The position numbers and the translations under genes were made by a program. From Escherichia coli (GTDB lineage Bacteria > Pseudomonadota > Gammaproteobacteria > Enterobacterales > Enterobacteriaceae), in NCBI RefSeq assembly GCF_003334815.1, contig NZ_QOWO01000128.1: DNA of 557 bases; one strand, written 5' to 3'. Under the pieces are notes generated by a model. It was not told where the DNA came from. It did not search any database and saw only the letters and a program-made list of their open reading frames with translations. Shown here piece by piece: positions 1 to 557 of this stretch. Each line of letters starts with the position of its first letter. Within the stretch, counting starts at the first letter, position 1.

Positions 1-57
1 GTCCTTCATCGCCTCTGACTGCCAGGGCATCCACCGTGTACGCTTAGTCGCTTAACC
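1..57 (-). rRNA. rrl: 23S ribosomal RNA, 5' end only (gene continues beyond the left edge of the window)
   Basis: The reverse complement of 1..57 reads GGTTAAGCGACTAAGCGTACACGGTGGATGCCCTGGCAGTCAGAGGCGATGAAGGAC, which matches the canonical 5' end of enterobacterial 23S rRNA as I recall it. The mature 5' end (GGTTAAG) falls at position 57. Boundary is from memory of the mature end, not from mapping. Confidence 0.93.
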
Positions 58-231
58 TCACAACCCGAAGATGTTTCACTTCAGAGTTGCGAAAATTTGA
101 GAGACTCACGAACAACTTTCGTTGTTCAGTGTTTCAATTTTCAGCTTGATCCAGATTTTTAAAGAGCAAAACTTCGCAGTGAACCTTTGCAGGTACACTC
201 TGAAGTATTTTTTATTTAATCACTACAGAGA
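58..231 (-). other. Transcribed spacer between tRNA-Ala and 23S rRNA (distal part of the 16S-23S ITS)
   Basis: Lies between the tRNA-Ala 3' end (232) and the 23S 5' end (57). AT-rich, with no ORF carrying a plausible start and ribosome-binding site on either strand. Contains the boxA-like motif and a tetraloop hairpin listed separately. Confidence 0.9.
156..168 (-). promoter_or_regulatory. boxA-like rRNA antitermination element in the spacer
   Basis: The reverse complement of 156..168 is TGCTCTTTAAAAA, which closely resembles the rrn boxA consensus (GCTCTTTAACAA), the NusB/NusE-binding element of the rRNA antitermination system. A spacer copy of boxA between the tRNA genes and 23S is a known feature of E. 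coli rrn operons. Exact extent is approximate. Confidence 0.6.
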
Positions 232-307
232 TGGTGGAGCTATGCGGGATCGAACCGCAGACCTCCTGCGTGCAAAGCAGGCGCTCTCCCAGCTGAGCTA
301 TAGCCCC
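232..307 (-). tRNA. alaT: tRNA-Ala, anticodon UGC, 76 nt, CCA encoded
   Basis: The reverse complement of 232..307 is GGGGCTATAGCTCAGCTGGGAGAGCGCCTGCTTTGCACGCAGGAGGTCTGCGGTTCGATCCCGCATAGCTCCACCA. It has the G3:U70 identity pair of tRNA-Ala, a D-loop (AGCTGGGAGAGC), anticodon TGC (plus-strand GCA at 272..274), a T-arm (GGTTCGATCC) and a 3' CCA. This matches the E. coli spacer tRNA-Ala(UGC). The paralogue (alaT, alaU or alaV) cannot be told apart from this window; the symbol is the family representative. Confidence 0.97.
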
Positions 308-349
308 ATAACATGTAGTTAAAACCTCTTCAAATTTGCCGTGCAAATT
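308..349 (-). other. Short spacer between tRNA-Ile and tRNA-Ala
   Basis: 42 nt between the two tRNA genes. Contains an 8-bp inverted repeat (332..339 pairing with 343..350) that abuts the tRNA-Ile 3' end. Confidence 0.9.
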
Positions 350-426
<77 letters not shown>

Positions 427-494
427 GTAGAGGTTTTACTGCTCATTTTCATCAGACAATCTGTGTGAGCACTGCAAAGTACGCTTCTTTAAGG
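427..494 (-). other. Transcribed spacer between 16S rRNA and tRNA-Ile (proximal part of the ITS)
   Basis: The reverse complement begins CCTTAAAGAAGCGTACTTTGCAGTGCTCACACAGATTGTCTGATGAAAATGAGCAG, directly after the 16S 3' terminus. This matches the enterobacterial ITS sequence that forms one half of the 16S RNase III processing stem. Confidence 0.9.
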
Positions 495-557
495 TAAGGA
501 GGTGATCCAACCGCAGGTTCCCCTACGGTTACCTTGTTACGACTTCACCCCAGTCAT
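495..557 (-). rRNA. rrs: 16S ribosomal RNA, 3' end only (gene continues beyond the right edge of the window)
   Basis: The reverse complement of 495..557 is ATGACTGGGGTGAAGTCGTAACAAGGTAACCGTAGGGGAACCTGCGGTTGGATCACCTCCTTA. This is the universally conserved 16S 3' domain: the binding site of the 1492R universal primer, helix 45, and the anti-Shine-Dalgarno CCTCC (plus-strand GGAGG at 498..502). The mature 3' end is at position 495. Confidence 0.96.

Follow-up and report, generated by a model that had tools for sequence, protein, structure and literature searches.

A 66-codon open reading frame antisense to tRNA-Ala in the Escherichia coli rrnD spacer is almost certainly a chance open frame

We conclude that the 66-codon open reading frame (ORF) at positions 122..322 on the plus strand of a 557-nt stretch of Escherichia coli DNA (the whole stretch analysed, hereafter the window) is almost certainly not a gene but a frame that happens to be open on the wrong strand of the rrnD spacer. 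The original prediction, that this ORF is an antisense artefact that should not be called as a coding sequence (CDS), is supported by the length of the ORF, its signals, the conservation of its frame, the pattern of substitutions, searches of protein families and the existing annotation. Nothing that we found is a positive argument for coding, and we infer that the ORF is not translated; that any part of its frame is translated into a functional product is very improbable.

The window matches E. coli K-12 with 100% identity and is the reverse complement of the rrnD 16S-23S spacer (NC_000913.3 3426727-3427283), flanked in K-12 by yrdA and yhdZ. A match to it was found in every one of the 5426 complete E. 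coli genomes searched (5426/5426). The layout of an Ile/Ala-type spacer is complete on the minus strand, leading from the 3' end of the 16S rRNA through tRNA-Ile(GAU), tRNA-Ala(UGC) and boxA to the 5' end of the 23S rRNA. The elements of this spacer and the landmarks of the ORF on the opposite strand are as follows.

1..57, minus strand: 5' end of the 23S rRNA (rrlD), from an Rfam search and the K-12 annotation.
65..164, minus strand: StyR-44 (RF01830), a pre-23S spacer segment whose 5' part is antisense to ORF codons 1-15; 106.9 bits against a gathering score of 54.
98..100, plus strand: in-frame TGA, the stop that bounds the ORF on its upstream side, from the sequence.
122..322, plus strand: mechanical ORF of 66 codons with a TTG start and a TAA stop (320-322), from the six-frame ORF listing; judged non-coding.
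156..168, minus strand: spacer boxA, TGCTCTTTAAAAA, with 1 mismatch to the consensus and a chance expectation of 0.03.
232..307, minus strand: tRNA-Ala(UGC), alaU (b3276), with encoded CCA, lying beneath ORF codons 37-62; from ARAGORN, Rfam (RF00005, 65.6 bits) and NC_000913.3.
242..244, plus strand: first and only in-frame ATG (codon 41), within the antisense of tRNA-Ala, from the sequence.
350..426, minus strand: tRNA-Ile(GAU), ileU, outside the ORF; from ARAGORN, Rfam and the K-12 annotation.
495..557, minus strand: 3' end of the 16S rRNA (rrsD), including the anti-Shine-Dalgarno tail, from an Rfam search and the K-12 annotation.

NusB and NusE are brought to the rrn antitermination complex by boxA. 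The spacer boxA is an established antitermination element of rrn operons (Berg et al., 1989; Pfeiffer and Hartmann, 1997; as cited in PMC10250234, ref. 22, and PMC4807359, ref. 26), and StyR-44 was originally reported as a 109-nt RNA upstream of every 23S gene, with the caveat that it might merely be a metastable intermediate of rRNA processing (PMC2943607). Set against the Ile/Ala-type spacers of E. coli (rrnA, rrnD and rrnH, with spacer boxA and StyR-44), the window shows no difference, being rrnD itself. Relative to rrnA and rrnH of K-12, rrnD lacks 9 nt near window position 76 and differs at positions 79-85, 121, 220, 474 and 480. The StyR-44 segment therefore varies between the K-12 operons, especially over window 70-90, and in rrnD the loss of 9 nt and the differences at 79-85 coincide with a gap and with non-canonical pairs in the terminal hairpin of the StyR-44 Rfam alignment.

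The ORF is present as predicted, lying between the in-frame TGA at 98-100 and the TAA at 320-322 and corresponding to 3426848-3427048 (plus strand) of NC_000913.3, and its overlaps with the spacer boxA (156-168) and with the entire tRNA-Ala (232-307), both in antisense, are confirmed. Its start had been described as an ATG at 122 without a Shine-Dalgarno (SD) sequence; the second half of this description holds, as no SD precedes position 122 and pairing with the 16S 3' tail yields +0.1 kcal/mol at best, whereas the codon itself is TTG. The N-terminus had been called low-complexity, hydrophobic and AT-driven. It is indeed AT-driven, with a GC content of 34% over 122-231 versus 63% over the tRNA, but the low complexity is only mild and the hydrophobicity modest, so that these two terms were overstated (in residues 1-36, F, L, I, Y, N and K make up 58%, the entropy is 3.77 bits and the GRAVY score is +0.34).

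The length of the ORF is no greater than chance. When the 557-nt window was shuffled 2000 times with its dinucleotides preserved, the longest ORF in six frames had a median of 65 codons and reached at least 66 codons in 50% of the shuffles. A scan confined to this short 557-nt window revealed no sigma-70-like promoter and no terminator-like site on either strand. Four of the five Arg codons of the ORF are rare ones (AGG, AGA, CGG and CGA), and ATA, GGA and CCC are also present. The mean codon score of the ORF is -0.03 versus 0.17-0.43 in eight neighbouring genes, a contrast that is somewhat inflated, as the scores of the neighbours are in-sample. A Pfam scan of the 66-aa peptide returned nothing significant (best E = 0.092), an NCBIfam scan returned no match, and no Rfam family was significant on the plus strand of the window, where OxyS (17.5 bits), HPnc0260 (30.5 bits) and Plastid-ycf2 (17.6 bits) scored far under their gathering scores and were set aside as chance.

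The window also holds other mechanical ORFs over its tRNA genes: one of 57 aa (212-385, minus strand) that runs in sense across tRNA-Ala and part of tRNA-Ile, one of 39 aa (349-468, plus strand) that is antisense to tRNA-Ile, and one of 21 aa with an ATG start (231-296, plus strand) that lies over tRNA-Ala. These three ORFs are presumably artefacts of the same kind.

The frame, the start and the stop of the ORF are not conserved among related spacers. Because protein databases hold only ORFs that have been called, and are thus a biased sample, we fetched spacers without reference to the ORF, by a pattern consisting of the antisense core of boxA, a gap of 45-75 nt and the 32 nt with which the tRNA-Ala antisense begins. 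This ORF-blind sample comprised 75 gammaproteobacterial spacers (Enterobacterales, Vibrionales, Shewanella and others), of which 70 were evaluable for an upstream stop, and tRNA-Ala set the frame in which we read each locus. Of the 70 evaluable loci, 61 had an in-frame stop no more than 83 nt upstream of the tRNA, and only 9 had a frame open beyond boxA. The start and stop of the window were reproduced solely by two E. coli-type loci (L042 and L082), and in the spacer locus of S. enterica subsp. diarizonae both differ from those of the window. Measured from the tRNA 3' end, the downstream stop was 82-325 nt away across the loci and 91 nt away in the window. The gap between boxA and the tRNA measured 46-74 nt and showed no preference for multiples of 3 across the 75 spacers: (gap - 63) mod 3 was 0, 1 and 2 in 16, 25 and 34 loci, respectively. 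The antisense of boxA, TT-TAA-AGAGCA, contains a TAA at 160-162 (plus strand), which is out of frame in E. coli because the boxA-tRNA gap there is 63 nt. The commonest gap in the sample, 62 nt (17 loci), brings this TAA into frame, and in 11 of the 17 no other in-frame stop lies closer upstream of the tRNA. A single base of spacing is thus what leaves the frame open in E. coli.

Two loci of this sample have labels at odds with their sequence. L082 (USBZ01000017.1, a 39-kb contig), labelled 'uncultured Desulfovibrio sp.', holds an enterobacterial-type rrn spacer with the exact ORF geometry of E. coli, and L071 (CACSKA010000050.1, 600 bp), labelled 'Chryseobacterium sp. 18061', likewise holds an enterobacterial-type rrn spacer. 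Mis-binning or contamination of both assemblies is probable.

Alignment of 55 unique spacers to window 119-323 revealed no excess of substitutions at third codon positions, either in the spacer part or in the tRNA part. For codon positions 1, 2 and 3 of the ORF frame, the spacer part had divergences of 0.329, 0.373 and 0.376, and the free part of the tRNA had 0.031, 0.061 and 0.038. Nor was there a preference for in-frame indels within 122-231, where 18, 61 and 57 indel runs had lengths of 0, 1 and 2 modulo 3. Conservation was 0.89-1.00 across boxA with its flank (139-168), 0.87-1.00 across the tRNA (229-308) and approximately 0.3 at the start (119-128) and the stop (309-323) of the ORF. The conservation profile follows the RNA elements of the minus strand, not the ORF.

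These observations are best explained by a simple account. The functional sequences are those on the opposite strand, namely the pre-23S segment StyR-44, boxA and tRNA-Ala (alaU), and constraint at the RNA level on these elements keeps the DNA conserved. A reverse-strand translation of such DNA therefore gives the impression of a 'conserved' peptide at every place where this tRNA is encoded. That the frame is open in E. coli is an accident of spacing, as the 63-nt gap between boxA and the tRNA shifts the TAA of the boxA antisense into another frame. K-12 carries the ORF intact and identical in each of its Ile/Ala-type operons (rrnA, rrnD and rrnH), and nearly all E. coli have it with at least 99% identity. 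We considered and rejected selection on the ORF as the reason for this intactness, which is uninformative because it is expected from the homogenisation of rrn operons together with the constraint on the RNAs of the other strand.

At the protein level, the 66-aa peptide had 325 matches among 5.8 billion clusters; every named one was a 'hypothetical protein' or equivalent, and most sit on contigs a few hundred bases long. The matches range from 39 to 116 aa and have unrelated termini. Among the best 120 of the 325, 117-119 cover residues 38-62, exactly the codons that translate tRNA-Ala, whereas residue 1 is covered by 8 and residue 66 by 15. All four distant matches that we inspected in their genomic context are antisense to a tRNA-Ala gene, three of them in rrn operons, including those of Vibrio aestuarianus and Aeromonas schubertii. 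The fourth, P0021, a 99-aa call, lies antisense across several genes of a five-gene stand-alone tRNA-Ala cluster (L005 2257-2811, minus strand) with the order GGC, UGC, UGC, GGC, GGC, in a 5.3-kb locus that has no rRNA match. Because coverage is confined to residues 38-62 and P0021 lies outside rrn, the similarity tracks tRNA-Ala and not the rrn spacer. The expectation that any BLASTP hits would be other mis-annotated rrn spacers was thus right in that all named matches are hypothetical, and has to be amended in that their anchor is tRNA-Ala rather than rrn spacers as such. A conserved homologue outside rrn operons had been proposed as grounds for refutation; P0021 fits this wording, yet it overlaps stand-alone tRNA-Ala genes, and we rejected the wording as too loose, the proper form being a homologue that does not overlap a tRNA-Ala gene.

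Individual matches illustrate how these calls come about. In the Salmonella match P0063, the spacer is read in the frame of the ORF and the tRNA then in a different frame, that of the 231..296 ORF of the window, so that the peptide ends in ...MVELCGIEPQTSCVQSRRSPS; this frame switch is a signature of conservation at the level of the DNA, not of the protein. The closest matches, P0001 and P0002 (83 aa), are single, rare metagenomic variants that carry a mutation in the TGA at 98-100, so that the call begins at the ATG at 71. P0020 (113 aa, on a 5106-bp NCBI contig) carries the same string, TLTVCRFNFQLDPDF, near both termini, and its motif FNFQLDPDF is the translation, in another frame, of the boxA-flanking region of the window (ORF 97..162), which suggests that this organism has two copies of the boxA-flanking region, one on each side of tRNA-Ala.

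The exact 66-aa peptide is absent from approximately 15 billion predicted proteins, even though its DNA is present in several copies per E. coli genome. We consulted two K-12 records, the curated one and that from PGAP, and a further 40 E. coli records of RefSeq, drawn from along the ranking. None of them has a CDS at the ORF; tRNA-Ala is the only feature annotated there, joined in one case by tRNA-Ile. Mis-annotated cases do exist, such as SARI_04232, SARI_02749 and SARI_03528 of Salmonella arizonae (UniProt A9MN88, A9MHG4), partial 'hypothetical proteins' of E. coli and Salmonella on tiny contigs and many metagenome calls. The statement that ORFs of this type are often mis-annotated by automated pipelines is therefore accurate for older GenBank entries and metagenome calls, but not for current PGAP annotation of E. 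coli.

Spurious families of this type have been described before. Eleven of the original custom-alignment families of AntiFam (Table 2; Spurious_ORF_10 to _20) are entitled 'Translated bacterial tRNA' (Eberhardt et al., 2012; PMC3308159). As in those families, our ORF overlaps a confidently identified tRNA gene, with alaU lying wholly inside it, and its 'homologues' are hypothetical proteins with unrelated termini that resemble each other only through conserved tRNA DNA; this likeness is to the families as described (PMC3308159) and not one of HMM score. Unlike them, the ORF runs 110 nt past the tRNA into the boxA spacer, an extension whose DNA is conserved only within Enterobacterales and Vibrionales. 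A further parallel is PF10695 'Cw-hydrolase', a withdrawn Pfam family that is antisense to rRNA (PMC3308159). There too, the reverse strand of the highly conserved rrn operon gave rise to a spurious 'family', but PF10695 lies within rRNA genes, whereas the ORF studied here lies over the 16S-23S spacer and a tRNA.

Could the frame nonetheless encode a protein? A 66-aa small protein might have arisen de novo in Escherichia only and be made, from the TTG at 122, on an antisense transcript of low abundance that crosses the rrn spacer. Such a protein would fit with the ORF being intact in rrnA, rrnD and rrnH of K-12 and in essentially all E. coli genomes, but this intactness is explained by the constraint on the tRNA, boxA and pre-rRNA of the opposite strand. 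The codon score is the best of the three plus-strand frames (-0.03 compared to -0.46 and -0.30), yet rare Arg and Ile codons are frequent. Ribosome profiling could also have missed the ORF, since at least one published E. coli pipeline, that of Weaver et al., drops tRNA and rRNA reads, retains unique mapping only and leaves out ORFs within 18 nt of annotated genes (10.1101/511675); the preprint of Stringer et al. does not mention how rRNA and tRNA reads were handled. The lack of the ORF in such a catalogue is no evidence, because the pipeline is blind to tRNA, rRNA and multi-copy loci. Against the 66-aa protein stand the chance length of the ORF, a TTG without SD, the lack of a promoter-like site within the window, a frame that a stop interrupts in 61 of the 70 evaluable related spacers and that in Salmonella has another start or is switched, and the fact that no gene caller delivered the exact protein among 15 billion. 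We consider it exceedingly unlikely. No more probable is that only the distal part is translated, as a 26-aa peptide (MRDRTADLLRAKQALSQLSYSPITCS) from the ATG at 242. This ATG is the sole one in the frame, the SD-like GGAG at 236-239 (plus strand) can form a duplex of -5.6 kcal/mol with the anti-SD, and the segment is the one common to nearly all database 'homologues'. However, the GGAG is the mere complement of the ...CUCC... near the 3' end of tRNA-Ala (acceptor/CCA end, GCUCCACCA), and its distance of 2 nt to the ATG is too short for a normal SD. The conservation of the segment is fully explained by the tRNA and comes with no third-position excess, the stop beyond the tRNA is not conserved (82 to 325 nt) and the peptide has no family match. 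As a built-in look-alike of an SD, the GGAG might be rewarded by gene callers.

Pervasive antisense transcription is common in bacteria, and the plus strand might give rise to a non-coding antisense RNA that acts on the processing of pre-rRNA or tRNA-Ala, the ORF being incidental. What speaks for such an RNA is this general commonness and nothing specific to the locus. The plus strand of the window bears neither a promoter-like nor a terminator-like site and no significant Rfam family (OxyS, HPnc0260 and Plastid-ycf2 being far below their gathering scores), and conservation tracks the known elements of the minus strand exactly; we regard this RNA as the least probable of the readings weighed here. 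For the coding alternatives as a whole, an Escherichia-restricted de novo protein, made at a low level from the three Ile/Ala-type spacers as 66 aa (from TTG 122) or 26 aa (from ATG 242) and undetected because pipelines discard such reads and ORFs, is very unlikely. If the ORF were translated, an rRNA operon would harbour a protein gene on its antisense strand, a real curiosity.

The chance open frame that we favour instead is relevant only to the hygiene of annotation: the conservation of tRNA DNA creates apparent protein families from spurious ORFs once these have been deposited. Such cases come with a simple diagnostic, in that the similarity of the matches collapses exactly at the borders of the tRNA and the spacing of boxA ignores the reading frame.
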